From contig CBDCCI010000001.1 of assembly GCA_965214705.1 (NCBI GenBank), forward strand, positions 643,104 through 707,103: a stretch of 64,000 nucleotides of DNA, written 5' to 3'. The notes under the pieces were generated by a model. The model made no database searches. It was not told the origin of the DNA and saw nothing but the letters and a program-made list of their open reading frames with translations. The stretch comes from Alphaproteobacteria bacterium. GTDB lineage: Bacteria > Pseudomonadota > Alphaproteobacteria > UBA828. Positions 785-58,799 of this stretch are shown here, piece by piece. Positions within the stretch are counted from its first letter, which is position 1. Every line of letters starts with the position of its first letter. The translations under genes and the position numbers were made by a program.

Positions 785-1087
785 GGGATGATTTTGCACA
801 TGCCCTCTCGACTTGTCGCGCCTCCCCGCTTCATGTAGGGCGCGTACCAAAATGTCTTGAACGAAGCCGCTACGCGGAGTTAGCGGCGTAGAGTTCATTC
901 ATTTCCGAGGCGTCGCGGGTGCCGTTTGTTCTGTGCGTTCGCTTCCCGGTTGCGTCAGTGGCGCTCCGCCCGTCGGGTGGCGGATCCCCAGCAGCCTCCC
1001 GATCACCAGTGGTTAGTATCGACCCCTGCGACGGACCGTCGCCGGATCGGTCCGGCGGCGCGCCGTCGCGATCCAGGGAGATCGATA

Positions 1088-1966
1088 ATGACCGGGACCG
1101 CGTGCGACACGAACACCGTCACCCCTCTTCGCCAGCGCATGGAGGAGCAGCTCCGCATCGCCAATCTGGCCGCGAGCACGTCCAAGGCCTACATCTGCGA
1201 GATCAAGAACCTGGCCAGGTACTACGACGCCTCGCCGGACGAGCTCGACGCCGAGCAGGTGCGCCAGTGGTACCTGGGGCGGATCGACAAGGGGCTCAGT
1301 CCGGGCACGACCAACGTCTCCTTCGCCGCGCTGAACTTCCTCTACATCGACACACTCGGCTGGCCTGACCATGTCGCCGGCCTGCGCTCCCGCAAGAAGC
1401 CCGGCAAGCTGCCGCGCTACATGTCGGAGCAGGAGGTCGAGCACCTCATCCTTGCGACACCCGACCTCCGCCACCGTGCTGCCATTGTCACCGGCTATGG
1501 CGGCGGGCTCCGCATCTCCGAGACCTTGGCCATCAAGGTCGGCGACATCCTGTCGGAGAAGAAGCTGCTGCACATCCCCTCCGGCAAAGGCGGCACCGAG
1601 AGAATGGCACCGTTGCCGGACATCGTCATCCACTACTTGCGCGTCTACTACAGGAACATCTGGCCGCGTCCGACGAACTGGCTCTTCTACGGCGTCTCGC
1701 TCGACAGGCCCATCGCAACGGAGACCTTGCAGGCCGCCTTCAGGAGGGCGCGCGACATTGCCGAGCTCGACCGCAGCTACACCTTCCATTGCCTGCGCCA
1801 TTCGGCGGCGACCCATCTCCTCGAGCGCGGCGGCGATATCGAGGTGATCCGGGACATGCTCGGCCATCGAAGCGCGAACACGACCCGTCACTACGCCCGC
1901 GTCACCGGCAAGATGTTCGAGGGCCTCGACCACCCGATCTCAGGCTTCGCAGCGTTGCGCAACTGA
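1088..1966 (+). CDS. Tyrosine recombinase/integrase (N-terminal SAM-like + catalytic domain)
   Basis: GLRISE, HCLRHSAATHLLE, LGH, TTRHY motifs; ATG at 1088 preceded by AGGGAG. Confidence 0.93.
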   Translation: MTGTACDTNTVTPLRQRMEEQLRIANLAASTSKAYICEIKNLARYYDASPDELDAEQVRQWYLGRIDKGLSPGTTNVSFAALNFLYIDTLGWPDHVAGLRSRKKPGKLPRYMSEQEVEHLILATPDLRHRAAIVTGYGGGLRISETLAIKVGDILSEKKLLHIPSGKGGTERMAPLPDIVIHYLRVYYRNIWPRPTNWLFYGVSLDRPIATETLQAAFRRARDIAELDRSYTFHCLRHSAATHLLERGGDIEVIRDMLGHRSANTTRHYARVTGKMFEGLDHPISGFAALRN

Positions 1967-1972
1967 CGGCGC

Positions 1973-3214
1973 GTGGAGGCCGAACGCGCGGGCGTGGCGG
2001 AGATCTTCCGCCGCGCCGGCGCCGCTTTCCGTGAGCGCCACAAAGGGCGCATCGACGCCGCCCGGCTCAAGGTCATGGGCGCCATCGAGGCGTGCCGCAC
2101 CGCCGTGCTCGGCGGCCACATGTACGCCTGCGAGGGCTGCGGGCGCGAGCATCCGCTCTTCAACTCCTGCCGCAACCGCCACTGCCCCACCTGCCAGGGT
2201 CTCGCCGCCAACCTCTGGAGCGAGGAGCGCGCCGGGGACATCCTGCCGGTGCCCTACTTCCATGTGGTCTTCACCCTGCCCAAGGAGGTTGCCGCCATTG
2301 CCTTCTGCAACCGCAGGGTGGTGTTCGACATCCTCTTCCGGGCCGTCGCCGAGACCCTGCGCACCATCGCCGCCGATCCCCGCCACGGCGGCATGCGCAT
2401 CGGCGGCACCGCGGTCCTCCATACCTGGGATCAGAAGCTCCGCTTCCACCCGCACCTGCACGTGGTCGTGCCCAACGCGGGCTTCGACGTAGACAGTGGC
2501 GAGTGGAAGACGGGGAGCACCACCTTCCTCGCCCCCGTCAAGGTCCTCGGCAGCCTGTTCCGCCGCCTCTTCCTCGAGGAGCTCGCCCGCGCCCACGGCC
2601 GGGGGGACCTGGAGTTCCACGGCACCCTCGCCCACCTCGCCAATCCCGGCGAGTTCCACGCCACGCTTGCCGCCGCCCGGGCCAGGGACTGGGTGGTCTA
2701 CGCCAAGCGGCCCTTCCGCGGGCCTGAGCAGGTCTTCCGGTACCTCTCGCACTACACGCACAGGATCGCCATCTCCGACAGCCGCATCGTCTCCTTCGAC
2801 GGCGAGACGGTCTCCTTCCGCCACCGAAAGCCCAAGGCGCCGGGGCAGAGAAAGCCGCGCTACGGCATCGCCACCGTGAGCGCCGACGAGTTCATCCGCC
2901 GCTTCCTGAGGCACGTCCTGCCGGACGGCATGCACCGCATTCGCTACTTCGGCATCCTCGCCAACGGCTGCCGCGCCAGCACGCTGGAGAGAGCACGCCA
3001 GGCTCTCGGCGCCCTCGGCTGCGCCGCCCCCGAGGGAAGCGTGGACGGCGCTCGGGCCGAGCCCGACGAAGAGCCCGAGATCGGCACCGCGCCCGTGGCC
3101 TGCCCCCACTGCGGCGGCGTCATGCGCCTCGTCCGCGAAATCCGCCGCCGCCATGAGCCCCGCTCGACGCGCGGCCCGCCGGCGCTGCCGCCGACCCACA
3201 GGGGGAAACCGTGA
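1973..3214 (+). CDS. IS91-family HUH (Y2) transposase
   Basis: Zn-binding C..C..SCRNRHCPTC, HPHLH HUH motif, YLSHY (YxxxY), HRIRYFG. Confidence 0.95.
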   Translation: MEAERAGVAEIFRRAGAAFRERHKGRIDAARLKVMGAIEACRTAVLGGHMYACEGCGREHPLFNSCRNRHCPTCQGLAANLWSEERAGDILPVPYFHVVFTLPKEVAAIAFCNRRVVFDILFRAVAETLRTIAADPRHGGMRIGGTAVLHTWDQKLRFHPHLHVVVPNAGFDVDSGEWKTGSTTFLAPVKVLGSLFRRLFLEELARAHGRGDLEFHGTLAHLANPGEFHATLAAARARDWVVYAKRPFRGPEQVFRYLSHYTHRIAISDSRIVSFDGETVSFRHRKPKAPGQRKPRYGIATVSADEFIRRFLRHVLPDGMHRIRYFGILANGCRASTLERARQALGALGCAAPEGSVDGARAEPDEEPEIGTAPVACPHCGGVMRLVREIRRRHEPRSTRGPPALPPTHRGKP

Positions 3215-3462
3215 GACGCCCGCTCGCTTCGGCCCCGCGCAACGGCGCCAAAGCGCCGACGCACGACCGAACCTGTCTCCGCTTGAGCCGGGCTGACAGC
3301 CCTCGGCTCACACCCCGCTCAGTCCTCGCAGCGTGCGCCCGCATGCCTGCCGAAAGACCGGCGCGAGCGTCGATTTTATGCGCAACTCTGCTGCCGGTGG
3401 ATGCCGCCTGACGCTGACATCAGCGCACTTTCCACATAGCTCAACTTCGCCTCTCGTGGCCC

Positions 3463-3540
3463 GCGGCTTCGTTCAAGGTTAAGGGTTGGGCAGGCTCTCT
3501 CTCGAGAGCCTGCCCAACCCTTAACCTTGAACGAAGCCGC
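3463..3540. repeat. Perfect 37-bp inverted repeat with 4-nt loop at the copy 1/copy 2 junction
   Basis: 3463-3499 is the exact reverse complement of 3504-3540; loop tctc. Confidence 0.95.
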
Positions 3541-6192
3541 TACGCGGAGTTAGCGGCGTAGAGTTCATTCATTTCCGAGGCGTCGCGGGTGCCGTTTGTT
3601 CTGTGCGTTCGCTTCCCGGTTGCGTCAGTGGCGCTCCGCCCGTCGGGTGGCGGATCCCCAGCAGCCTCCCGATCACCAGTGGTTAGCATCGACCCCTGCG
3701 ACGGACCGTCGCCGGATCGGTCCGGCGGCGCGCCGTCGCGATCCAGGGAGATCGATAATGACCGGGACCGCGTGCGACACGAACACCGTCACCCCTCTTC
3801 GCCAGCGCATGGAGGAGCAGCTCCGCATCGCCAATCTGGCCGCGAGCACGTCCAAGGCCTACATCTGCGAGATCAAGAACCTGGCCAGGTACTACGACGC
3901 CTCGCCGGACGAGCTCGACGCCGAGCAGGTGCGCCAGTGGTACCTGGGGCGGATCGACAAGGGGCTCAGTCCGGGCACGACCAACGTCTCCTTCGCCGCG
4001 CTGAACTTCCTCTACATCGACACACTCGGCTGGCCTGACCATGTCGCCGGCCTGCGCTCCCGCAAGAAGCCCGGCAAGCTGCCGCGCTACATGTCGGAGC
4101 AGGAGGTCGAGCACCTCATCCTTGCGACACCCGACCTCCGCCACCGTGCTGCCATTGTCACCGGCTATGGCGGCGGGCTCCGCATCTCCGAGACCTTGGC
4201 CATCAAGGTCGGCGACATCCTGTCGGAGAAGAAGCTGCTGCACATCCCCTCCGGCAAAGGCGGCACCGAGAGAATGGCACCGTTGCCGGACATCGTCATC
4301 CACTACTTGCGCGTCTACTACAGGAACATCTGGCCGCGTCCGACGAACTGGCTCTTCTACGGCGTCTCGCTCGACAGGCCCATCGCAACGGAGACCTTGC
4401 AGGCCGCCTTCAGGAGGGCGCGCGACATTGCCGAGCTCGACCGCAGCTACACCTTCCATTGCCTGCGCCATTCGGCGGCGACCCATCTCCTCGAGCGCGG
4501 CGGCGATATCGAGGTGATCCGGGACATGCTCGGCCATCGAAGCGCGAACACGACCCGTCACTACGCCCGCGTCACCGGCAAGATGTTCGAGGGCCTCGAC
4601 CACCCGATCTCAGGCTTCGCAGCGTTGCGCAACTGACGGCGCGTGGAGGCCGAACGCGCGGGCGTGGCGGAGATCTTCCGCCGCGCCGGCGCCGCTTTCC
4701 GTGAGCGCCACAAAGGGCGCATCGACGCCGCCCGGCTCAAGGTCATGGGCGCCATCGAGGCGTGCCGCACCGCCGTGCTCGGCGGCCACATGTACGCCTG
4801 CGAGGGCTGCGGGCGCGAGCATCCGCTCTTCAACTCCTGCCGCAACCGCCACTGCCCCACCTGCCAGGGTCTCGCCGCCAACCTCTGGAGCGAGGAGCGC
4901 GCCGGGGACATCCTGCCGGTGCCCTACTTCCATGTGGTCTTCACCCTGCCCAAGGAGGTTGCCGCCATTGCCTTCTGCAACCGCAGGGTGGTGTTCGACA
5001 TCCTCTTCCGGGCCGTCGCCGAGACCCTGCGCACCATCGCCGCCGATCCCCGCCACGGCGGCATGCGCATCGGCGGCACCGCGGTCCTCCATACCTGGGA
5101 TCAGAAGCTCCGCTTCCACCCGCACCTGCACGTGGTCGTGCCCAACGCGGGCTTCGACGTAGACAGTGGCGAGTGGAAGACGGGGAGCACCACCTTCCTC
5201 GCCCCCGTCAAGGTCCTCGGCAGCCTGTTCCGCCGCCTCTTCCTCAAGGAGCTCGCCCGCGCCCACGGCCGGGGGGACCTGGAGTTCCACGGCACCCTCG
5301 CCCACCTCGCCAATCCCGGCGAGTTCCACGCCACGCTTGCCGCCGCCCGGGCCAGGGACTGGGTGGTCTACGCCAAGCGGCCCTTCCGCGGGCCTGAGCA
5401 GGTCTTCCGGTACCTCTCGCACTACACGCACAGGATCGCCATCTCCGACAGCCGCATCGTCTCCTTCGACGGCGAGACGGTCTCCTTCCGCCACCGAAAG
5501 CCCAAGGCGCCGGGGCAGAGAAAGCCGCGCTACGGCATCGCCACCGTGAGCGCCGACGAGTTCATCCGCCGCTTCCTGAGGCACGTCCTGCCGGACGGCA
5601 TGCACCGCATTCGCTACTTCGGCATCCTCGCCAACGGCTGCCGCGCCAGCACGCTGGAGAGAGCACGCCAGGCTCTCGGCGCCCTCGGCTGCGCCGCCCC
5701 CGAGGGAAGCGTGGACGGCGCTCAGGCCGAGCCCGACGAAGAGCCCGAGATCGGCACCGCGCCCGTGGCCTGCCCCCACTGCGGCGGCGTCATGCGCCTC
5801 GTCCGCGAAATCCGCCGCCGCCATGAGCCCCGCTCGACGCGCGGCCCGCCGGCGCTGCCGCCGACCCACAGGGGGAAACCGTGAGACGCCCGCTCGCTTC
5901 GGCCCCGCGCAACGGCGCCAAAGCGCCGACGCACGACCGAACCTGTCTCCGCTTGAGCCGGGCTGACAGCCCTCGGCTCACACCCCGCTCAGTCCTCGCA
6001 GCGTGCGCCCGCATGCCTGCCGAAAGACCGGCGCGAGCGTCGATTTTATGCGCAACTCTGCTGCCGGTGGATGCCGCCTGACGCTGACATCAGCGCACTT
6101 TCCACATAGCTCAACTTCGCCTCTCGTGGCCCGCGGCTTCGTTCAAAAGGGTTGGGCAGGCTCTCGAGAGAGAGCCTGCCCAACCCTTAACC
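3527..6192 (+). mobile_element. IS91-family element copy 2 (integrase 3758-4636, transposase 4643-5884)
   Basis: Near-identical to copy 1; ends aagggttgggcaggctctc-gaga-gagagcctgcccaaccctt-aacc. Confidence 0.95.
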
Positions 6193-6222: not shown

Positions 6223-7419
6223 TCACGTTCTAGACCGGCGCGCTCCTTCGCCCCTTCCGGGGGGGGGGGGATATTCACCGCAGCCGTCACGACCGTCGAG
6301 TGAGACGTGCCGGACCGGCGTCGAGAGGCCCGGACGCCGCTTTGCGAAGGCGGCGCCGTGTGGACGCAACCGGGCCACTGTTCGGTATACCAAGGTGTAG
6401 AGTGCAAACAGCAATGCCAAGGCGACAAGCAACCACTCTCGATCATGCGGAACGAGCACGACCGCAGCCAAGCTCGCCAACGACCCTCCCCACATCAGCG
6501 CGCCGGTCACGGGATTGGCAAGCCGCTCATTCCCGGCCGCCCGGGCGAGCCTCCTTCCGAGGCGCCGGTAAACCAACATATGCAGATGCAGTCGGTCCGG
6601 TCGGAAAGGGCTGCCGCCTCTGCGGATCTTTCGGGTAACCGAGAACGCGGTCTCCAGCAGGGGATAGGCCAGTATGACCACGCTAACCCACGGGGAGACA
6701 TCGGGATTTCGCATGGGAACCATGACGGCCACGGAAGCGATCATGAAGCCGAGCAAATAGGCTCCTCCATCTCCCAGGAAAATATAGCCAAACGGAAAAT
6801 TCACCAACAAGAACCCCAACAGAACACCAACAATAACGAAACAGAACGACGCCATGTCGTGATCGCCCACCCCGAGGGAAACGACGGCGAATGCGACCAG
6901 CATGATGATCGTGGTTCCCGTCGCCAGACCGTTGAAACCGTCAATGATGTTCACCGCGTGCGTCAAACCGGCCATCGCGAAGGCGGTGAAGGCTATTGCA
7001 ATGAAAGGAAGTGCCATCGCATGATCGACGAAAGGTATGTCCACGCGCGTCACGGCGTAGCCGGTCAAAAGGCAAAAGACGAGGCCCGAAAGCATCGGTG
7101 CAACGAGCCGCAATGTGATCCCACCGGTCTTGGTGAAATCTTCGACCATACCCGCCAGAAAGGCGAAGGCGGCGCTGGCGCCGACGGCAAACAGGAGATC
7201 ACGCACCGGCGGCGGCGATGCGCTCGCCGCCGCCCAATATCCTGCGTACACGGCAAGACCGCCGATCCTAGGGGTGGGCGTCGCATGAAACTTATGCGGC
7301 CCCACCGCATGATCGTGACTGAGAGCGCCGTGCCAGCGCCTGGTCATTACCAACACGGCGCCAATAACAACGGTGACCGCGAGGCCGAGGAGGGATGAGT
7401 AGATGAAGTTTGGGGGCAT
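6223..7419 (-). CDS. MraY/WecA-like glycosyltransferase family 4 (undecaprenyl-phosphate sugar-phosphate transferase)
   Basis: KFHATPTPRIGG, NIIDGFNGL, IFLGDGGAY, PDRLHLH motifs; multiple TM segments; the C-terminus crosses a 12-G tract so the end is uncertain. Confidence 0.88.
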   Translation of the reverse strand: MPPNFIYSSLLGLAVTVVIGAVLVMTRRWHGALSHDHAVGPHKFHATPTPRIGGLAVYAGYWAAASASPPPVRDLLFAVGASAAFAFLAGMVEDFTKTGGITLRLVAPMLSGLVFCLLTGYAVTRVDIPFVDHAMALPFIAIAFTAFAMAGLTHAVNIIDGFNGLATGTTIIMLVAFAVVSLGVGDHDMASFCFVIVGVLLGFLLVNFPFGYIFLGDGGAYLLGFMIASVAVMVPMRNPDVSPWVSVVILAYPLLETAFSVTRKIRRGGSPFRPDRLHLHMLVYRRLGRRLARAAGNERLANPVTGALMWGGSLASLAAVVLVPHDREWLLVALALLFALYTLVYRTVARLRPHGAAFAKRRPGLSTPVRHVSLDGRDGCGEYPPPPGRGEGARRSRT

Positions 7420-7791
7420 TGGGGGTCGGATACTCTCGTTGAGGGCGCTAACCGTCACCCGGTGCGATGCCGCGCTCGTCCCGCTGTTCGATCATGATCT
7501 CCGCGCTCCCGAGAACCCCGCAGCGCTGCTCCCTCGTCCCGATCGCAACACGCCGGGAAGGGGTACGCGTAGGTCACTGCGGCAACCTACCCCGGGAAGT
7601 CCGTTGCTTCAATCCATGGCCTCTCGGGCGACCCCCGCGCAGCGCTGGGATTGTCACCCGCAGGGCGATCCTCTCTCTCAATTCGCTCATCCTCGCGGTC
7701 TACAAGGGTTTTGCGCAATCCAGCCCACGTCCAACTGCCGCTTTGGGATCATACTCGCCGAGGATCGCCGGATCGAGCGCGCGCGCCCTGC

Positions 7792-23677: not shown

Positions 23678-26343
23678 TTGAACGAAGCCGCTACGCGGAG
23701 TTAGCGGCGTAGAGTTCATTCATTTCCGAGGCGTCGCGGGTGCCGTTTGTTCTGTGCGTTCGCTTCCCGGTTGCGTCAGTGGCGCTCCGCCCGTCGGGTG
23801 GCGGATCCCCAGCAGCCTCCCGATCACCAGTGGTTAGCATCGACCCCTGCGACGGACCGTCGCCGGATCGGTCCGGCGGCGCGCCGTCGCGATCCAGGGA
23901 GATCGATAATGACCGGGACCGCGTGCGACACGAACACCGTCACCCCTCTTCGCCAGCGCATGGAGGAGCAGCTCCGCATCGCCAATCTGGCCGCGAGCAC
24001 GTCCAAGGCCTACATCTGCGAGATCAAGAACCTGGCCAGGTACTACGACGCCTCGCCGGACGAGCTCGACGCCGAGCAGGTGCGCCAGTGGTACCTGGGG
24101 CGGATCGACAAGGGGCTCAGTCCGGGCACGACCAACGTCTCCTTCGCCGCGCTGAACTTCCTCTACATCGACACACTCGGCTGGCCTGACCATGTCGCCG
24201 GCCTGCGCTCCCGCAAGAAGCCCGGCAAGCTGCCGCGCTACATGTCGGAGCAGGAGGTCGAGCACCTCATCCTTGCGACACCCGACCTCCGCCACCGTGC
24301 TGCCATTGTCACCGGCTATGGCGGCGGGCTCCGCATCTCCGAGACCTTGGCCATCAAGGTCGGCGACATCCTGTCGGAGAAGAAGCTGCTGCACATCCCC
24401 TCCGGCAAAGGCGGCACCGAGAGAATGGCACCGTTGCCGGACATCGTCATCCACTACTTGCGCGTCTACTACAGGAACATCTGGCCGCGTCCGACGAGCT
24501 GGCTCTTCTACGGCGTCTCGCTCGACAGGCCCATCGCAACGGAGACCTTGCAGGCCGCCTTCAGGAGGGCGCGCGACATTGCCGAGCTCGACCGCAGCTA
24601 CACCTTCCATTGCCTGCGCCATTCGGCGGCGACCCATCTCCTCGAGCGCGGCGGCGATATCGAGGTGATCCGGGACATGCTCGGCCATCGAAGCGCGAAC
24701 ACGACCCGTCACTACGCCCGCGTCACCGGCAAGATGTTCGAGGGCCTCGACCACCCGATCTCAGGCTTCGCAGCGTTGCGCAACTGACGGCGCGTGGAGG
24801 CCGAACGCGCGGGCGTGGCGGAGATCTTCCGCCGCGCCGGCGCCGCTTTCCGTGAGCGCCACAAAGGGCGCATCGACGCCGCCCGGCTCAAGGTCATGGG
24901 CGCCATCGAGGCGTGCCGCACCGCCGTGCTCGGCGGCCACATGTACGCCTGCGAGGGCTGCGGGCGCGAGCATCCGCTCTTCAACTCCTGCCGCAACCGC
25001 CACTGCCCCACCTGCCAGGGTCTCGCCGCCAACCTCTGGAGCGAGGAGCGCGCCGGGGACATCCTGCCGGTGCCCTACTTCCATGTGGTCTTCACCCTGC
25101 CCAAGGAGGTTGCCGCCATTGCCTTCTGCAACCGCAGGGTGGTGTTCGACATCCTCTTCCGGGCCGTCGCCGAGACCCTGCGCACCATCGCCGCCGATCC
25201 CCGCCACGGCGGCATGCGCATCGGCGGCACCGCGGTCCTCCATACCTGGGATCAGAAGCTCCGCTTCCACCCGCACCTGCACGTGGTCGTGCCCAACGCG
25301 GGCTTCGACGTAGACAGTGGCGAGTGGAAGACGGGGAGCACCACCTTCCTCGCCCCCGTCAAGGTCCTCGGCAGCCTGTTCCGCCGCCTCTTCCTCAAGG
25401 AGCTCGCCCGCGCCCACGGCCGGGGGGACCTGGAGTTCCACGGCACCCTCGCCCACCTCGCCAATCCCGGCGAGTTCCACGCCACGCTTGCCGCCGCCCG
25501 GGCCAGGGACTGGGTGGTCTACGCCAAGCGGCCCTTCCGCGGGCCTGAGCAGGTCTTCCGGTACCTCTCGCACTACACGCACAGGATCGCCATCTCCGAC
25601 AGCCGCATCGTCTCCTTCGACGGCGAGACGGTCTCCTTCCGCCACCGAAAGCCCAAGGCGCCGGGGCAGAGAAAGCCGCGCTACGGCATCGCCACCGTGA
25701 GCGCCGACGAGTTCATCCGCCGCTTCCTGAGGCACGTCCTGCCGGACGGCATGCACCGCATTCGCTACTTTGGCATCCTCGCCAACGGCTGCCGCGCCAG
25801 CACGCTGGAGAGAGCACGCCAGGCTCTCGGCGCCCTCGGCTGCGCCGCCCCCGAGGGAAGCGTGGACGGCGCTCAGGCCGAGCCCGACGAAGAGCCCGAG
25901 ATCGGCACCGCGCCCGTGGCCTGCCCCCACTGCGGCGGCGTCATGCGCCTCGTCCGCGAAATCCGCCGCCGCCATGAGCCCCGCTCGACGCGCGGCCCGC
26001 CGGCGCTGCCGCCGACCCACAGGGGGAAACCGTGAGACGCCCGCTCGCTTCGGCCCCGCGCAACGGCGCCAAAGCGCCGACGCACGACCGAACCTGTCTC
26101 CGCTTGAGCCGGGCTGACAGCCCTCGGCTCACACCCCGCTCAGTCCTCGCAGCGTGCGCCCGCATGCCTGCCGAAAGACCGGCGCGAGCGTCGATTTTAT
26201 GCGCAACTCTGCTGCCGGTGGATGCCGCCTGACGCTGACATCAGCGCACTTTCCACATAGCTCAACTTCGCCTCTCGTGGCCCGCGGCTTCGTTCAAAAG
26301 GGTTGGGCAGGCTCTCGAGAGAGAGCCTGCCCAACCCTTAACC
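23678..26343 (+). mobile_element. IS91-family element copy 3 (integrase 23909-24787, transposase 24794-26035)
   Basis: Same termini and ORFs; inserted in the DV loop of intron 1. Confidence 0.95.
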
Positions 26344-46468: not shown

Positions 46469-49133
46469 TTGAACGAAGCCGCTACGCGGAGTTAGCGGCG
46501 TAGAGTTCATTCATTTCCGAGGCGTCGCGGGTGCCGTTTGTTCTGTGCGTTCGCTTCCCGGTTGCGTCAGTGGCGCTCCGCCCGTCGGGTGGCGGATCCC
46601 CAGCAGCCTCCCGATCACCAGTGGTTAGTATCGACCCCTGCGACGGACCGTCGCCGGATCGGTCCGGCGGCGCGCCGTCGCGATCCAGGGAGATCGATAA
46701 TGACCGGGACCGCGTGCGACACGAACACCGTCACCCCTCTTCGCCAGCGCATGGAGGAGCAGCTCCGCATCGCCAATCTGGCCGCGAGCACGTCCAAGGC
46801 CTACATCTGCGAGATCAAGAACCTGGCCAGGTACTACGACGCCTCGCCGGACGAGCTCGACGCCGAGCAGGTGCGCCAGTGGTACCTGGGGCGGATCGAC
46901 AAGGGGCTCAGTCCGGGCACGACCAACGTCTCCTTCGCCGCGCTGAACTTCCTCTACATCGACACACTCGGCTGGCCTGACCATGTCGCCGGCCTGCGCT
47001 CCCGCAAGAAGCCCGGCAAGCTGCCGCGCTACATGTCGGAGCAGGAGGTCGAGCACCTCATCCTTGCGACACCCGACCTCCGCCACCGTGCTGCCATTGT
47101 CACCGGCTATGGCGGCGGGCTCCGCATCTCCGAGACCTTGGCCATCAAGGTCGGCGACATCCTGTCGGAGAAGAAGCTGCTGCACATCCCCTCCGGCAAA
47201 GGCGGCACCGAGAGAATGGCACCGTTGCCGGACATCGTCATCCACTACTTGCGCGTCTACTACAGGAACATCTGGCCGCGTCCGACGAGCTGGCTCTTCT
47301 ACGGCGTCTCGCTCGACAGGCCCATCGCAACGGAGACCTTGCAGGCCGCCTTCAGGAGGGCGCGCGACATTGCCGAGCTCGACCGCAGCTACACCTTCCA
47401 TTGCCTGCGCCATTCGGCGGCGACCCATCTCCTCGAGCGCGGCGGCGATATCGAGGTGATCCGGGACATGCTCGGCCATCGAAGCGCGAACACGACCCGT
47501 CACTACGCCCGCGTCACCGGCAAGATGTTCGAGGGCCTCGACCACCCGATCTCAGGCTTCGCAGCGTTGCGCAACTGACGGCGCGTGGAGGCCGAACGCG
47601 CGGGCGTGGCGGAGATCTTCCGCCGCGCCGGCGCCGCTTTCCGTGAGCGCCACAAAGGGCGCATCGACGCCGCCCGGCTCAAGGTCATGGGCGCCATCGA
47701 GGCGTGCCGCACCGCCGTGCTCGGCGGCCACATGTACGCCTGCGAGGGCTGCGGGCGCGAGCATCCGCTCTTCAACTCCTGCCGCAACCGCCACTGCCCC
47801 ACCTGCCAGGGTCTCGCCGCCAACCTCTGGAGCGAGGAGCGCGCCGGGGACATCCTGCCGGTGCCCTACTTCCATGTGGTCTTCACCCTGCCCAAGGAGG
47901 TTGCCGCCATTGCCTTCTGCAACCGCAGGGTGGTGTTCGACATCCTCTTCCGGGCCGTCGCCGAGACCCTGCGCACCATCGCCGCCGATCCCCGCCACGG
48001 CGGCATGCGCATCGGCGGCACCGCGGTCCTCCATACCTGGGATCAGAAGCTCCGCTTCCACCCGCACCTGCACGTGGTCGTGCCCAACGCGGGCTTCGAC
48101 GTAGACAGTGGCGAGTGGAAGACGGGGAGCACCACCTTCCTCGCCCCCGTCAAGGTCCTCGGCAGCCTGTTCCGCCGCCTCTTCCTCGAGGAGCTCGCCC
48201 GCGCCCACGGCCGGGGGGACCTGGAGTTCCACGGCACCCTCGCCCACCTCGCCAATCCCGGCGAGTTCCACGCCACGCTTGCCGCCGCCCGGGCCAGGGA
48301 CTGGGTGGTCTACGCCAAGCGGCCCTTCCGCGGGCCTGAGCAGGTCTTCCGGTACCTCTCGCACTACACGCACAGGATCGCCATCTCCGACAGCCGCATC
48401 GTCTCCTTCGACGGCGAGACGGTCTCCTTCCGCCACCGAAAGCCCAAGGCGCCGGGGCAGAGAAAGCCGCGCTACGGCATCGCCACCGTGAGCGCCGACG
48501 AGTTCATCCGCCGCTTCCTGAGGCACGTCCTGCCGGACGGCATGCACCGCATTCGCTACTTCGGCATCCTCGCCAACGGCTGCCGCGCCAGCACGCTGGA
48601 GAGAGCACGCCAGGCTCTCGGCGCCCTCGGCTGCGCCGCCCCCGAGGGAAGCGTGGACGGCGCTCAGGCCGAGCCCGACGAAGAGCCCGAGATCGGCACC
48701 GCGCCCGTGGCCTGCCCCCACTGCGGCGGCGTCATGCGCCTCGTCCGCGAAATCCGCCGCCGCCATGAGCCCCGCTCGACGCGCGGCCCGCCGGCGCTGC
48801 CGCCGACCCACAGGGGGAAACCGTGAGACGCCCGCTCGCTTCGGCCCCGCGCAACGGCGCCAAAGCGCCGACGCACGACCGAACCTGTCTCCGCTTGAGC
48901 CGGGCTGACAGCCCTCGGCTCACACCCCGCTCAGTCCTCGCAGCGTGCGCCCGCATGCCTGCCGAAAGACCGGCGCGAGCGTCGATTTTATGCGCAACTC
49001 TGCTGCCGGTGGATGCCGCCTGACGCTGACATCAGCGCACTTTCCACATAGCTCAACTTCGCCTCTCGTGGCCCGCGGCTTCGTTCAAAAGGGTTGGGCA
49101 GGCTCTCGAGAGAGAGCCTGCCCAACCCTTAAC
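46469..49133 (+). mobile_element. IS91-family element copy 4 (integrase 46700-47578, transposase 47585-48826)
   Basis: Same termini; last base displaced by IS1634. Confidence 0.95.
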
Positions 49134-51225
49134 CCGAACTTCCGTTAGCATCTGATTGCCGATCTGGCCGGATTTTGCCTGTTTCCGCCCTTTCTGCGCA
49201 GTTTAGCGCCCGGTTTGGCGCGAAATTCCCGAAATGATCGCCGAAACCGCCGCGATTCGGCGCTCCAGCGCTGGATCACGCCGTCCCGGCGCATCCACCA
49301 AAACCTGAATACTAGTCAGTAGATAGTTTTCTCGTTACGATAATTGCTCCGCATTCCCAAGCCTTTCCGATATGATTGCCGCGATTCGCTAGGCAGATCG
49401 ATATGCACATCGAAACCACCCGGTCCGGAAACTCCCGCTGCCACCTCCTCAGACAGTCCTACTGGCAGGACGGAAAACCCAAGAAGCGCACCCTGTGCAA
49501 CCTCTCCGCCCTCCCGGAACACGCCATCGAAGCCCTCAAACGCGCCCTCAAGCGCGGACCCGCCCTCAATCCCGACAGCGCCGACGTCGAACTGCGCGCC
49601 AGCCGGGCGCACGGCGCCGTCAGCGCCGTTCTCGGCACCCTTCGCGACATCGGCCTCGACCGCGTCATCTTCCACCGGCCCGATCGCCGCAGGGCCCTCG
49701 TCATCGCCATGATCGTCGCCCGCCTGATCCGGCCCGGCGCCAAGCTGCGCGTCGAGCGCGAACTGGGAGCGGCCGGCACAACCACCCTCGCCGCCCTGCT
49801 CGGCGTCGAAGGCGTCAGCGTCGACGAACTCTACGCCGCCATGGACTGGCTGGGCGCGCGACAGGGCGCGATCGAGCGCAAGCTCGCCCGGCGCCATCTC
49901 GGAGAGGACGATCTCGTCCTCTACGACGTGTCCTCGAGCTACATGGAGGGCAACGCCTGCCCCATGGCGAAGCGCGGCTATTCGAGGGATCGCCGGGGCG
50001 ACCGCCCGCAGATCGTCTACGGCCTCCTCTGCACCCGCGATGGCTGTCCGGTCTCGATCGAGGCCTTCGCCGGCAACACCGGCGACCCGATGACTCTGGC
50101 CAGCCAGGTGCGCAAGGTCCGCGACAGCTTCGGCATCCGGCGGGTGGTGTTGGTGGGGGACCGCGGCATGATCGCGCAGACCCGCATCGACCGCGACCTC
50201 GCGCCCAACGGCATCGACTGGATCACGGCGCTGCGCGCATCCTCGATCCGCAAGCTCGTCGACCGGGGGCATGTCACGCCCGGCCTGTTCGACACCTGGG
50301 GCCTCGCGCGGGTGACCACGCCGGACTATCCCGGCGAGAGGCTGATCGTCTGCTACAACCCGGTTCTGGCGGCCGAGCGCAAGCGCAACCGCGACGGGCT
50401 GCTCAATGCGACCGAGACGGACGCGCGCGATTTCGCCGCGCGCCACGCCGCCGGCGACATCGACCGCGACGAGTTGAACCGTCGGCTGGGAACCTTGCGC
50501 CGCCGCAAGATGGCCAAGCACTTCCGCTTCGAATTCGACGAGGGCAGCGGCACCTTCAGTTGCGAACGCGACCGGGCGTCGATCGACGCCGAGGCCGCCC
50601 TCGACGGTCTCTACGTCATACGCACCAACGTGGACGAGGACGAGATCGAGGACGTCGAGGCGGTCCGCGTCTACAAGAGCCTGTCACGCGTCGAGCGCGC
50701 CTTCCGCTCGCTCAAGACGGTGTCGTTGCGGATCCGCCCGATCTTCCACTGGCGCGACGACCGAGTACGGGCGCATCTTCTGATCTGCATGCTGGCTTGG
50801 TATGTCGAGTGGCACATGCGCCGCAGGCTGGCGCCGCTGCTGTTCGCCGAGGAGGACGGAGCGCCGCTGTCCGCGAACCCGGTGGCGCCGCCGGAACGCT
50901 CGGAAAAGGCCCGGCGCAAGGACAAGCGCCGAAAGACGGATGATGGACTTGCGGTGTGCGACTTCCGCGATCTCCTCGGCCATCTCGGCACGCTTGCTGC
51001 CACTGAGATCGCCACCGGAACCGACTTCGCCGTGCCCGCCCTGACCAAGCCGACCGAACTGCAGGAAAGGGCGTTCGCATTGCTCGGGCTGCGGCCCCAT
51101 CCTGCGCCCGCGCTCACCGAAAAGGGGATGACCACCGCCAAACCTGTCCAGTAATCGTCGCTTCGAAACTCGCCGAAACCCCTGCCGCACAACGGTTCTT
51201 TGACTATCCCACACTGGAAGTTCGG
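49134..51225 (+). mobile_element. IS1634-family element A, copy 1 (transposase ~49403-51154)
   Basis: TIR ccgaacttcc, TSD cttaac; YDVSSSY, GYSRD, VGDRG, VERAFR. Confidence 0.93.
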
Positions 51226-54042: not shown

Positions 54043-56707
54043 TTGAACGAAGCCGCTACGCGGAGTTAGCGGCGTAGAGTTCATTCATTTCCGAGGCGTC
54101 GCGGGTGCCGTTTGTTCTGTGCGTTCGCTTCCCGGTTGCGTCAGTGGCGCTCCGCCCGTCGGGTGGCGGATCCCCAGCAGCCTCCCGATCACCAGTGGTT
54201 AGCATCGACCCCTGCGACGGACCGTCGCCGGATCGGTCCGGCGGCGCGCCGTCGCGATCCAGGGAGATCGATAATGACCGGGACCGCGTGCGACACGAAC
54301 ACCGTCACCCCTCTTCGCCAGCGCATGGAGGAGCAGCTCCGCATCGCCAATCTGGCCGCGAGCACGTCCAAGGCCTACATCTGCGAGATCAAGAACCTGG
54401 CCAGGTACTACGACGCCTCGCCGGACGAGCTCGACGCCGAGCAGGTGCGCCAGTGGTACCTGGGGCGGATCGACAAGGGGCTCAGTCCGGGCACGACCAA
54501 CGTCTCCTTCGCCGCGCTGAACTTCCTCTACATCGACACACTCGGCTGGCCTGACCATGTCGCCGGCCTGCGCTCCCGCAAGAAGCCCGGCAAGCTGCCG
54601 CGCTACATGTCGGAGCAGGAGGTCGAGCACCTCATCCTTGCGACACCCGACCTCCGCCACCGTGCTGCCATTGTCACCGGCTATGGCGGCGGGCTCCGCA
54701 TCTCCGAGACCTTGGCCATCAAGGTCGGCGACATCCTGTCGGAGAAGAAGCTGCTGCACATCCCCTCCGGCAAAGGCGGCACCGAGAGAATGGCACCGTT
54801 GCCGGACATCGTCATCCACTACTTGCGCGTCTACTACAGGAACATCTGGCCGCGTCCGACGAACTGGCTCTTCTACGGCGTCTCGCTCGACAGGCCCATC
54901 GCAACGGAGACCTTGCAGGCCGCCTTCAGGAGGGCGCGCGACATTGCCGAGCTCGACCGCAGCTACACCTTCCATTGCCTGCGCCATTCGGCGGCGACCC
55001 ATCTCCTCGAGCGCGGCGGCGATATCGAGGTGATCCGGGACATGCTCGGCCATCGAAGCGCGAACACGACCCGTCACTACGCCCGCGTCACCGGCAAGAT
55101 GTTCGAGGGCCTCGACCACCCGATCTCAGGCTTCGCAGCGTTGCGCAACTGACGGCGCGTGGAGGCCGAACGCGCGGGCGTGGCGGAGATCTTCCGCCGC
55201 GCCGGCGCCGCTTTCCGTGAGCGCCACAAAGGGCGCATCGACGCCGCCCGGCTCAAGGTCATGGGCGCCATCGAGGCGTGCCGCACCGCCGTGCTCGGCG
55301 GCCACATGTACGCCTGCGAGGGCTGCGGGCGCGAGCATCCGCTCTTCAACTCCTGCCGCAACCGCCACTGCCCCACCTGCCAGGGTCTCGCCGCCAACCT
55401 CTGGAGCGAGGAGCGCGCCGGGGACATCCTGCCGGTGCCCTACTTCCATGTGGTCTTCACCCTGCCCAAGGAGGTTGCCGCCATTGCCTTCTGCAACCGC
55501 AGGGTGGTGTTCGACATCCTCTTCCGGGCCGTCGCCGAGACCCTGCGCACCATCGCCGCCGATCCCCGCCACGGCGGCATGCGCATCGGCGGCACCGCGG
55601 TCCTCCATACCTGGGATCAGAAGCTCCGCTTCCACCCGCACCTGCACGTGGTCGTGCCCAACGCGGGCTTCGACGTAGACAGTGGCGAGTGGAAGACGGG
55701 GAGCACCACCTTCCTCGCCCCCGTCAAGGTCCTCGGCAGCCTGTTCCGCCGCCTCTTCCTCAAGGAGCTCGCCCGCGCCCACGGCCGGGGGGACCTGGAG
55801 TTCCACGGCACCCTCGCCCACCTCGCCAATCCCGGCGAGTTCCACGCCACGCTTGCCGCCGCCCGGGCCAGGGACTGGGTGGTCTACGCCAAGCGGCCCT
55901 TCCGCGGGCCTGAGCAGGTCTTCCGGTACCTCTCGCACTACACGCACAGGATCGCCATCTCCGACAGCCGCATCGTCTCCTTCGACGGCGAGACGGTCTC
56001 CTTCCGCCACCGAAAGCCCAAGGCGCCGGGGCAGAGAAAGCCGCGCTACGGCATCGCCACCGTGAGCGCCGACGAGTTCATCCGCCGCTTCCTGAGGCAC
56101 GTCCTGCCGGACGGCATGCACCGCATTCGCTACTTCGGCATCCTCGCCAACGGCTGCCGCGCCAGCACGCTGGAGAGAGCACGCCAGGCTCTCGGCGCCC
56201 TCGGCTGCGCCGCCCCCGAGGGAAGCGTGGACGGCGCTCAGGCCGAGCCCGACGAAGAGCCCGAGATCGGCACCGCGCCCGTGGCCTGCCCCCACTGCGG
56301 CGGCGTCATGCGCCTCGTCCGCGAAATCCGCCGCCGCCATGAGCCCCGCTCGACGCGCGGCCCGCCGGCGCTGCCGCCGACCCACAGGGGGAAACCGTGA
56401 GACGCCCGCTCGCTTCGGCCCCGCGCAACGGCGCCAAAGCGCCGACGCACGACCGAACCTGTCTCCGCTTGAGCCGGGCTGACAGCCCTCGGCTCACACC
56501 CCGCTCAGTCCTCGCAGCGTGCGCCCGCATGCCTGCCGAAAGACCGGCGCGAGCGTCGATTTTATGCGCAACTCTGCTGCCGGTGGATGCCGCCTGACGC
56601 TGACATCAGCGCACTTTCCACATAGCTCAACTTCGCCTCTCGTGGCCCGCGGCTTCGTTCAAAAGGGTTGGGCAGGCTCTCGAGAGAGAGCCTGCCCAAC
56701 CCTTAAC
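54043..56707 (+). mobile_element. IS91-family element copy 5 (integrase 54274-55152, transposase 55159-56400)
   Basis: Same termini; inserted in DV of intron 2. Confidence 0.95.
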
Positions 56708-58799
56708 CCGAACTTCCAGTGTGGGATAGTCAAAGAACCGTTGTGCGGCAGGGGTTTCGGCGAGTTTCGAAGCGACGATTACTGGACAGGTTTGGCGGTG
56801 GTCATCCCCTTTTCGGTGAGCGCGGGCGCAGGATGGGGCCGCAGCCCGAGCAATGCGAACGCCCTTTCCTGCAGTTCGGTCGGCTTGGTCAGGGCGGGCA
56901 CGGCGAAGTCGGTTCCGGTGGCGATCTCAGTGGCAGCAAGCGTGCCGAGATGGCCGAGGAGATCGCGGAAGTCGCACACCGCAAGTCCATCATCCGTCTT
57001 TCGGCGCTTGTCCTTGCGCCGGGCCTTTTCCGAGCGTTCCGGCGGCGCCACCGGGTTCGCGGACAGCGGCGCTCCGTCCTCCTCGGCGAACAGCAGCGGC
57101 GCCAGCCTGCGGCGCATGTGCCACTCGACATACCAAGCCAGCATGCAGATCAGAAGATGCGCCCGTACTCGGTCGTCGCGCCAGTGGAAGATCGGGCGGA
57201 TCCGCAACGACACCGTCTTGAGCGAGCGGAAGGCGCGCTCGACGCGTGACAGGCTCTTGTAGACGCGGACCGCCTCGACGTCCTCGATCTCGTCCTCGTC
57301 CACGTTGGTGCGTATGACGTAGAGACCGTCGAGGGCGGCCTCGGCGTCGATCGACGCCCGGTCGCGTTCGCAACTGAAGGTGCCGCTGCCCTCGTCGAAT
57401 TCGAAGCGGAAGTGCTTGGCCATCTTGCGGCGGCGCAAGGTTCCCAGCCGACGGTTCAACTCGTCGCGGTCGATGTCGCCGGCGGCGTGGCGCGCGGCGA
57501 AATCGCGCGCGTCCGTCTCGGTCGCATTGAGCAGCCCGTCGCGGTTGCGCTTGCGCTCGGCCGCCAGAACCGGGTTGTAGCAGACGATCAGCCTCTCGCC
57601 GGGATAGTCCGGCGTGGTCACCCGCGCGAGGCCCCAGGTGTCGAACAGGCCGGGCGTGACATGCCCCCGGTCGACGAGCTTGCGGATCGAGGATGCGCGC
57701 AGCGCCGTGATCCAGTCGATGCCGTTGGGCGCGAGGTCGCGGTCGATGCGGGTCTGCGCGATCATGCCGCGGTCCCCCACCAACACCACCCGCCGGATGC
57801 CGAAGCTGTCGCGGACCTTGCGCACCTGGCTGGCCAGAGTCATCGGGTCGCCGGTGTTGCCGGCGAAGGCCTCGATCGAGACCGGACAGCCATCGCGGGT
57901 GCAGAGGAGGCCGTAGACGATCTGCGGGCGGTCGCCCCGGCGATCCCTCGAATAGCCGCGCTTCGCCATGGGGCAGGCGTTGCCCTCCATGTAGCTCGAG
58001 GACACGTCGTAGAGGACGAGATCGTCCTCTCCGAGATGGCGCCGGGCGAGCTTGCGCTCGATCGCGCCCTGTCGCGCGCCCAGCCAGTCCATGGCGGCGT
58101 AGAGTTCGTCGACGCTGACGCCTTCGACGCCGAGCAGGGCGGCGAGGGTGGTTGTGCCGGCCGCTCCCAGTTCGCGCTCGACGCGCAGCTTGGCGCCGGG
58201 CCGGATCAGGCGGGCGACGATCATGGCGATGACGAGGGCCCTGCGGCGATCGGGCCGGTGGAAGATGACGCGGTCGAGGCCGATGTCGCGAAGGGTGCCG
58301 AGAACGGCGCTGACGGCGCCGTGCGCCCGGCTGGCGCGCAGTTCGACGTCGGCGCTGTCGGGATTGAGGGCGGGTCCGCGCTTGAGGGCGCGTTTGAGGG
58401 CTTCGATGGCGTGTTCCGGGAGGGCGGAGAGGTTGCACAGGGTGCGCTTCTTGGGTTTTCCGTCCTGCCAGTAGGACTGTCTGAGGAGGTGGCAGCGGGA
58501 GTTTCCGGACCGGGTGGTTTCGATGTGCATATCGATCTGCCTAGCGAATCGCGGCAATCATATCGGAAAGGCTTGGGAATGCGGAGCAATTATCGTAACG
58601 AGAAAACTATCTACTGACTAGTATTCAGGTTTTGGTGGATGCGCCGGGACGGCGTGATCCAGCGCTGGAGCGCCGAATCGCGGCGGTTTCGGCGATCATT
58701 TCGGGAATTTCGCGCCAAACCGGGCGCTAAACTGCGCAGAAAGGGCGGAAACAGGCAAAATCCGGCCAGATCGGCAATCAGATGCTAACGGAAGTTCGG
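56708..58799 (-). mobile_element. IS1634-family element A, copy 2 (inverted)
   Basis: Same 592-aa ORF, TIR ccgaacttcc, TSD cttaac. Confidence 0.93.

Follow-up and report, generated by a model that had tools for sequence, protein, structure and literature searches.

How do two mobile elements that lie head to tail come to be joined by a perfect palindrome? In the window, by which we mean the whole 64,000-nucleotide stretch of alphaproteobacterial DNA that was analysed, two direct repeats spaced 2670 bp apart, both copies of an IS91-family element that we call IS-A, meet at a 78-nt palindrome (3463-3540) whose position is exactly their joint. Its arms (3463-3499 and 3504-3540, 37 nt each) are 100% complementary and enclose a TCTC centre (3500-3503), and the sequence runs, in order, gttcaa-GGTT-stem-TCTC-stem'-AACC-ttgaac. 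The joint is known from the assembly sequence, and its letters and arms agree with a preliminary description that had reported a perfect palindrome with 37-bp arms at the tandem junction. The palindrome consists of the following parts.

3463..3476, plus strand: right inverted repeat (GCGGCTTCGTTCAA) of copy 1, reverse-complementary to the 14-nt left end at every position
3477..3480, plus strand: extra GGTT, complementary to the terminal AACC and found at none of the 90 ordinary right ends
3481..3522, plus strand: subterminal hairpin at the oriIS end, with a 19-bp stem and the 4-nt loop TCTC (GAGA at 84 of the 90 ordinary ends)
3523..3526, plus strand: AACC, the final four bases of IS-A copy 1, element DNA and not target
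3527..3540, plus strand: left end (terIS side) of copy 2, TTGAACGAAGCCGC, which is also of the preferred target type C/TTG...

Chance is excluded as the source of this structure: it is the longest of the four perfect inverted repeats with arms of at least 25 nt and a spacer of at most 10 nt in the whole 7.9-Mb genome, and its 19-nt stem has 10 matches in the window as against 0 in 100 shuffles. As single-stranded DNA, the joint is predicted to fold at -52 kcal/mol (z = -14.3, 200 shuffles), and an ordinary right end at -27.9 kcal/mol (z = -7.8).

IS-A and its copies in the window

The tandem, its genes and the other IS-A ends in the window are located as follows.

857..3526, plus strand: IS-A copy 1 (IS91 family, C2_643960_+), 2670 bp, that is 2666 bp plus GGTT; haplotype 161T 821A, loop TCTC
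1088..1966, plus strand: tyrosine recombinase gene of copy 1 (PF00589, 2.8e-33; PF13495, 4.8e-12)
1973..3214, plus strand: IS91-family Y2-HUH transposase gene of copy 1 (PF04986, 3.8e-54; PF14319, 4.2e-30)
3527..6192, plus strand: IS-A copy 2, 2666 bp, with an ordinary right end; haplotype 821A 1720A 2198A
3758..4636, plus strand: the same tyrosine recombinase gene in copy 2
4643..5884, plus strand: the same IS91-family Y2-HUH transposase gene in copy 2
6133..6192, plus strand: ordinary right end of copy 2, comprising inverted repeat, hairpin with GAGA loop and AACC (-27.9 kcal/mol)
26298..26343, plus strand: right-end hairpin and AACC of another IS-A copy
49089..49134 and 56663..56708: right-end hairpins and AACC of two further IS-A copies

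IS-A is laid out as TTGAAC...GCGGCTTCGTTCAA, followed by the 19-bp hairpin and AACC, and its two 14-nt ends match exactly as inverted repeats. The four free right ends in the window (stems at 6147, 26298, 49089 and 56663) all read gttcaa-stem-GAGA-stem'-aacc, just as the preliminary description had given them. At the opposite, terIS end the predicted fold is weak (-13.5 kcal/mol, z = -1.4), and 21 of 200 shuffles fold as well or better. The transposase scores 382.8 bits against NF033538 (cut-off 125), and the motifs HPHLHVV and YLSHY (Y-x3-Y) can be read by eye in its translation. The best NCBIfam matches of the recombinase are Xer and integron-integrase models, all of them under the cut-offs.

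Two other features lie close to the tandem. Within the final codons of a minus-strand open reading frame (6223-7458), shortly after copy 2 ends, there are 12 consecutive G (6259-6270), a homopolymer of a type prone to length change. On the other side, at 56-200, there is a fragment that is 87% identical over 60 nt to the IS-A left end and starts TTGTGAAGCCGC, 2 nt short of TTGAACGAAGCCGC; it seems to be left over from a related IS91-type element.

IS-A hairpins across the genome and beyond

The 19-bp-stem hairpin occurs 92 times in the genome: at 90 ordinary right ends, at the tandem joint and in one solo module. The ordinary ends (n = 90) read GCGGCTTCGTTCAA-stem-loop-stem'-AACC, with GAGA as the loop at 84 and TCTC at 6. 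Terminal AACC is present at 89 of 89 IS-A ends, and TTGAAC opens 96 of 100 left ends, the other 4 differing in the first two bases. The preliminary description had singled out loop orientation and GGTT as the features to be counted at all ends, and the count separates them: the TCTC loop recurs at 6 of the 90 ordinary ends and GGTT at none.

Right ends of five other IS91-like families in this genome are laid out in the same way (..TCAA, hairpin, short tail), with stems that diverge through paired changes. Such covariation across sister families indicates that the hairpin is a conserved part of the oriIS end. The insertion-sequence load of the genome is extreme, with about 90 copies of IS-A, 13 of a second element (IS-B), several other IS91-like families and further repeats in 10 to 40 or more copies.

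Some IS-A copies are themselves interrupted. Seventeen are split at exactly position 1306 (for example at C1:39433-41081 in genome coordinates, outside the window) by an insert of about 1650 bp in most cases and larger in some, and a second cluster of breaks falls at positions 1293-1295. The one insert examined, on C1, encodes an IS110-family transposase (PF02371 and PF01548), and the position 1306 insert may be a site-specific insertion sequence that aims at one spot inside another.

Searches outside this genome covered related genomes, plasmids and metagenomes. The exact IS-A hairpin is absent from 40 relatives and has 0 matches in metagenome contigs; a looser stem pattern retrieved only five unrelated Chloroflexota or Tectomicrobia loci from species-representative genomes; and megablast of IS-A against 72,556 plasmids returned six records, none with more than 17% coverage. 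The pattern IRR-N36-66-IRL (right and left inverted repeats separated by 36 to 66 nt) was found at 18 metagenome loci. Several of these were inspected and are diverging left ends or other palindromes; one of the 18, L036, looks like the tandem joint of a related element, simple and uncorrected.

Borders and target of IS-A

Does the terminal AACC belong to IS-A or to its target? Many IS-A copies lie within other repeats, which makes their empty sites accessible, and 19 of these sites are informative. They define the inserted unit as TTGAAC...AACC, placed before TT(G), exactly in 14 cases and with an irregularity of 1-2 nt in 5. AACC is found in none of the 19, and hence it is the last tetranucleotide of IS-A, and hairpin and AACC are both part of the element. 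There is no target-site duplication, the 14 exact sites out of 19 being without duplicated bases. The three bases that follow AACC are most often T (67/89), T (78/89) and G (43/89), and immediately 5' of the left end stands C in 48 of 100 cases and T in 29. These counts identify the target as C/TTG (the slash marks the point of insertion), a tetranucleotide of the IS91 type.

A consequence is that IS-A offers its own left end as a target. TTGAAC conforms to the target rule, is a preferred site and is often used, which explains the head-to-tail arrangement. Similarly, a complete IS-A abuts the left end (TTGAACTGAG) of 2 of the 13 IS-B copies, and in one of these pairs IS-A was the later arrival, as is shown by an empty paralogue. 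Between the two tandem copies of IS-A there are differences at positions 161, 1720 and 2198, so that they represent two separate insertions, not one read-through or duplication. The outer flanks of the tandem (...aaaatgtc and atttcg...) place copy 2 at a non-consensus site. Judging from these flanks, we infer that copy 2 would have settled there first and that copy 1 would then have landed at its ideal C/TTGAAC.

A probable route from a simple joint to a perfect palindrome

How might such an insertion give rise to the observed sequence? Built from the ends of IS-A, a simple joint reads IRR-stem-GAGA-stem'-AACC-IRL; it is 74 nt long and leaves AACC unpaired. Relative to this, the observed 78-mer carries GGTT opposite AACC and an inverted loop, and nothing else has changed. 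The preliminary description was therefore right that a simple head-to-tail joint, at 74 nt as against 78, cannot give the observed sequence. GGTT is the reverse complement of AACC.

Two candidate sources of the difference were rejected. If the segment between the 14-bp repeats were simply inverted, the product would be 74 nt long and lack AACC, as against the 78 nt observed. Nor can GGTT stem from tandem duplication or slippage, since the adjoining tetranucleotides, TCAA and AAGG, both differ from it.

We favour, with a probability of roughly 0.6, an origin in which self-targeted insertion made the joint and a quasipalindrome template switch, a known class of mutation, subsequently corrected it. 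We envision that IS-A inserted 5' of the TTGAAC of a resident copy and so created an IRR-hairpin-AACC-IRL joint, a 74-bp quasi-palindrome whose only flaws would be the 4-nt loop and the unpaired AACC. In later DNA synthesis, the growing strand would transiently copy the opposite arm of this quasi-palindrome. This might happen by either of two routes. In the first, a single cross-strand excursion would take the nascent strand onto the other parental strand, where it would copy IRR, AACC, stem and loop before returning. In the second, the incoming copy would already carry a TCTC loop, and the nascent bottom strand would fold back on its own stem and copy GGTT and IRR. Either route would write GGTT opposite AACC and leave a perfect 78-bp palindrome with a TCTC loop.

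When computed on the sequence, both the two-switch cross-strand copy and the fold-back of the nascent strand on a flipped-loop copy yield the observed 78-mer exactly. Template switching at a quasi-palindrome, the third of the mechanisms put forward in the preliminary description, is thus the one that we retain, as two routes reproduce the joint letter for letter. Both aspects of the change have precedents: quasipalindrome template switches in E. coli are described as perfecting imperfect repeats, standard reporters scoring the correction of a 4-bp difference (PMC7202029), and template switches are described as inverting hairpin loops, typically of 4 nt (PMC8794818), the inversion of a spacer by template switch being likewise stated in PMC8604942. 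AZT and fluoroquinolones are described as raising the frequency of quasipalindrome switches (PMC7202029).

Template switching also accounts for where the palindrome lies. The return switch needs the 14-nt IRL, and hence only an IS-A/IS-A joint can supply the substrate; the IS-A/IS-A joint is the sole place where a GGTT scar lies beside an IS-A right inverted repeat. Against this reading stands that, of the three tandem joints, only one is corrected, and both IS-A/IS-B joints retain the AACC bulge. From these sequence relationships we infer the order of events, and also that replication, rather than the enzymes of IS-A, made the switch. The reading of the joint as an undescribed transposition intermediate is conceivable but not needed.

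Conceivably, the tyrosine recombinase of IS-A could have inverted the hairpin cassette, with the palindrome serving as its recombination site. The enzyme is Xer- or integron-integrase-like, the hairpin consists of two inverted arms around an asymmetric centre, and enzymes of this kind are able to act on folded hairpins. A conservative inversion, however, keeps length, and the joint has gained 4 nt; synapsis of 19-bp arms that are only 4 bp apart cannot invert the spacer between them; and the genome contains no tail-to-tail (IRR-hairpin-IRR') reciprocal products. We regard a recombinase origin as extremely improbable. Inversion of the cassette, which the preliminary description had listed as a second mechanism, predicts a 74-mer without AACC, and the joint has 78 nt.

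Loop orientation and the transposase

Among 61 aligned full-length IS-A copies, 7 have the TCTC loop. The variant 161T occurs in 5 of these 7 flipped copies as against 16 of 54 unflipped ones, and two flipped copies lie 4.6 kb apart. Both observations suggest that a flipped copy went on transposing and that the flipped state is probably inherited as a lineage. Copy 1 may accordingly have arrived at the tandem with its loop already flipped. If flipped copies did keep transposing, the loop sequence would not be essential, which suggests that the transposase reads the oriIS stem and not the loop. Loop flips are found at 2 of 3 joints followed by TTGAAC and at 5 of 87 others (Fisher p = 0.015), a post hoc comparison of small numbers that shifts to p = 0.046 under a wider definition and to p = 0.24 without the junction itself. 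A link between loop flip and palindromic context is thus weak.

A further small hairpin is seen past the IS-B tail CAATTC, where ATTATGT-N8-ACATAAG occurs (for example in the C1:3503300 and C3:1790800 regions) with its 8-nt loop in both orientations among IS-B copies, TCAACTGC and GCAGTTGA. This may only reflect insertion, either way round, into a palindromic target repeat.

Might the transposase itself have made the joint, by cutting or joining the wrong strand or by a rolling-hairpin step, with the palindrome as a by-product or an intermediate? On the top strand, the right inverted repeat is identical to the terIS cut site (14/14 nt), and GTTCAA/GGTT-hairpin(TCTC) matches the ter-ori junction expected of a bottom-strand circle over 60 nt. 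Nevertheless, the single cut-and-join schemes that we wrote out give a 74-nt inversion or an inverted copy and never the 78-mer, which needs 4 nt of templated synthesis, and a ratio of 84 GAGA to 6 TCTC loops speaks against an obligatory hairpin-transfer step. Mobilisation by the top strand, moreover, predicted an IS-B without a hairpin of its own at the locus of the solo module, and the right end of IS-B is normal there. Taken together, we consider an aberrant act of the transposase very unlikely. The same ratio of loop orientations at ordinary ends, 84:6 and not about 1:1, tells against the parvovirus-like rolling hairpin that the preliminary description had invoked, as do the subterminal position of the hairpin and the movement of the family as a single-stranded DNA circle.

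A related idea is that the perfected joint is not a passive mutation and serves the transposase on either strand, as a mirror-image ter-ori junction. We hold this to be quite improbable. If it were true, the transposase could nick the two strands at the same point, and breaks or hairpin ends would be concentrated at the joint; alternatively, the downstream copy could be mobilised by the "wrong" strand. Strand switching of this kind would then have left its traces in the flipped loops (7%) and in the solo GGTT-hairpin-AACC module.

The solo module and a possible inverted insertion

The solo module (C1:3505984-3506041, outside the window) reads GGTT-stem-GAGA-stem'-AACC and has no IS-A adjoining it. 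It forms a perfect palindrome with 27-bp arms and lies between an IS-B left end and unique DNA, in the context (IS-B left end, reversed)-GGTT-stem-GAGA-stem'-AACC-TTGAGC. When this locus is aligned with an IS-A/IS-B tandem locus, the match extends across IS-B up to the far edge of the hairpin and no further. Carriage of the module with IS-B from the perfected joint, by top-strand mobilisation, was considered and rejected, IS-B keeping its normal right end at this locus. From its sequence, the module probably arose when two IS-A right ends in opposite orientation were fused at their hairpins: the hairpins are palindromes and therefore direct repeats of one another, and simple deletion between them would leave just such a module. 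A second GGTT-hairpin-AACC structure without an adjoining IS-A implies that there are other routes to it in this genome.

One such route can be imagined for the tandem joint. A third IS-A might have inserted in inverted orientation at the IRR/hairpin boundary of copy 1; the resulting 2.6-kb palindrome would be unstable, and deletion between the palindromic hairpins, as direct repeats, would later leave GGTT-hairpin-AACC. The boundary reads T/TTGAACGAAGCCGC on the bottom strand, a very good target, and under the target rule an IRR on the opposite strand is as good as a left end. The solo module, best read as a hairpin fusion of two opposed IS-A ends, is consistent with this course of events as well. 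It does, however, call for two events, and no intermediate survives; no IS-A hairpin in the genome is preceded by a reversed left end. Above all, such a scar could have formed at any of about 90 copies, and its presence at the sole IS-A/IS-A joint would be a coincidence of about 1 in 90, whereas template switching predicts the site. We thus find an inverted insertion followed by deletion rather improbable.

Is the palindrome an artefact of assembly?

Finally, the true joint could be a simple one, and wrongly oriented reads could have "corrected" the near-palindrome during assembly or polishing. A near-palindrome within a 90-copy repeat is indeed hard for polishers. A search found 12 sequencing runs, and in the Logan contigs of the four that were examined the repeat is collapsed; no listed piece bridges 3470-3500 with GGTT on the IS-A inverted repeat. 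Yet the change is exact and templated, consisting of 4 added nt and a clean loop inversion, and does not resemble noise. The flanks outside the 14-nt repeats are non-palindromic, so reads that span the joint orient unambiguously, and the resolution of about 90 copies in three contigs suggests that long reads were used. In addition, the solo GGTT-hairpin beside IS-B recurs in sequence data of another study, in a contig of run X6 with a loose end, CGCCCCGCCGCGGAA, before position 3462. Recovery of this IS-B-end/GGTT-hairpin context there indicates that the solo module is not peculiar to the present assembly and that the organism does carry modules of this type. We accordingly judge an artefact to be unlikely.

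Implications

In the best reading, IS-A is a new element and its tandem joint is an instance of a known mutation class. As such, the joint would represent a clean natural case in which two mobile-element ends create a long quasi-palindrome that is then perfected by the replication of the cell. Independently of how the joint arose, the borders of a highly successful IS91-type element (about 90 copies) with an Xer-like recombinase are now defined: AACC is its own, and C/TTG is its target. A corollary for annotation is that a new mechanism need not be invoked for every hairpin flip or GGTT/AACC "scar" at an IS91 end.

Comparison with known systems

How does IS-A relate to described members of its family? 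IS91-family elements are described as inserting without target duplication at CTTG, GTTC or GTCC beside oriIS, and as carrying subterminal palindromes at both ends (PMC13181058). Like them, IS-A encodes a Y2-HUH transposase with a zinc-binding N-terminus and makes no target duplication; its target abuts the oriIS end, as in IS91, IS801 and IS1294, and is C/TTG where theirs is CTTG or GTTC (PMC13181058). It shares the subterminal palindrome at oriIS and a terIS end with GTTC on the transferred strand. The tyrosines of the IS91 transposase are given as Y249 and Y253 (PMC5714925). Some members of the family carry an extra open reading frame of the phage-integrase family, and with its integrase-like gene IS-A resembles this subgroup (PMC8496243). 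For IS91 itself, a bottom-strand single-stranded circle is described as the active intermediate, and we assume by analogy that IS-A forms one too (PMC13181058). Unlike IS91, which PMC5714925 describes without inverted repeats, IS-A has a perfect 14-bp terminal inverted repeat and a perfect 19-bp stem. A further distinction from IS91 is its presence in about 90 copies in one genome.

Parvovirus and AAV termini offer the most obvious parallel to the hairpin, since they too occur in two orientations, flip and flop, that differ only in the unpaired part, and are likewise HUH-driven. In contrast to these termini, the IS-A hairpin is chromosomal and subterminal, its element moves as a circle, its orientations stand at 84:6 and not at about 1:1, and no hairpin-transfer product fits the 78-mer. 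On the top strand, the hairpin is followed by the unpaired AACC; on the bottom strand, which is the one transferred, it occupies the 5' end, from where it cannot prime synthesis. The joint also differs from a site-specific inversion switch in that its length has changed, with 78 nt observed and 74 nt predicted.

The closest match is quasipalindrome mutation, as in the Ripley model and the lacZ reporters QP5 and QP6 of E. coli, where an imperfect repeat is perfected from its other arm over a 4-bp difference (PMC7202029) and where inversion of the loop or spacer is described as a companion outcome (PMC8794818, PMC8604942). Unlike the lacZ reporters, the quasi-palindrome considered here would have been built from two mobile-element ends by an event that we reconstruct from its product, and its arms are longer, growing from 33 bp to 37 bp.
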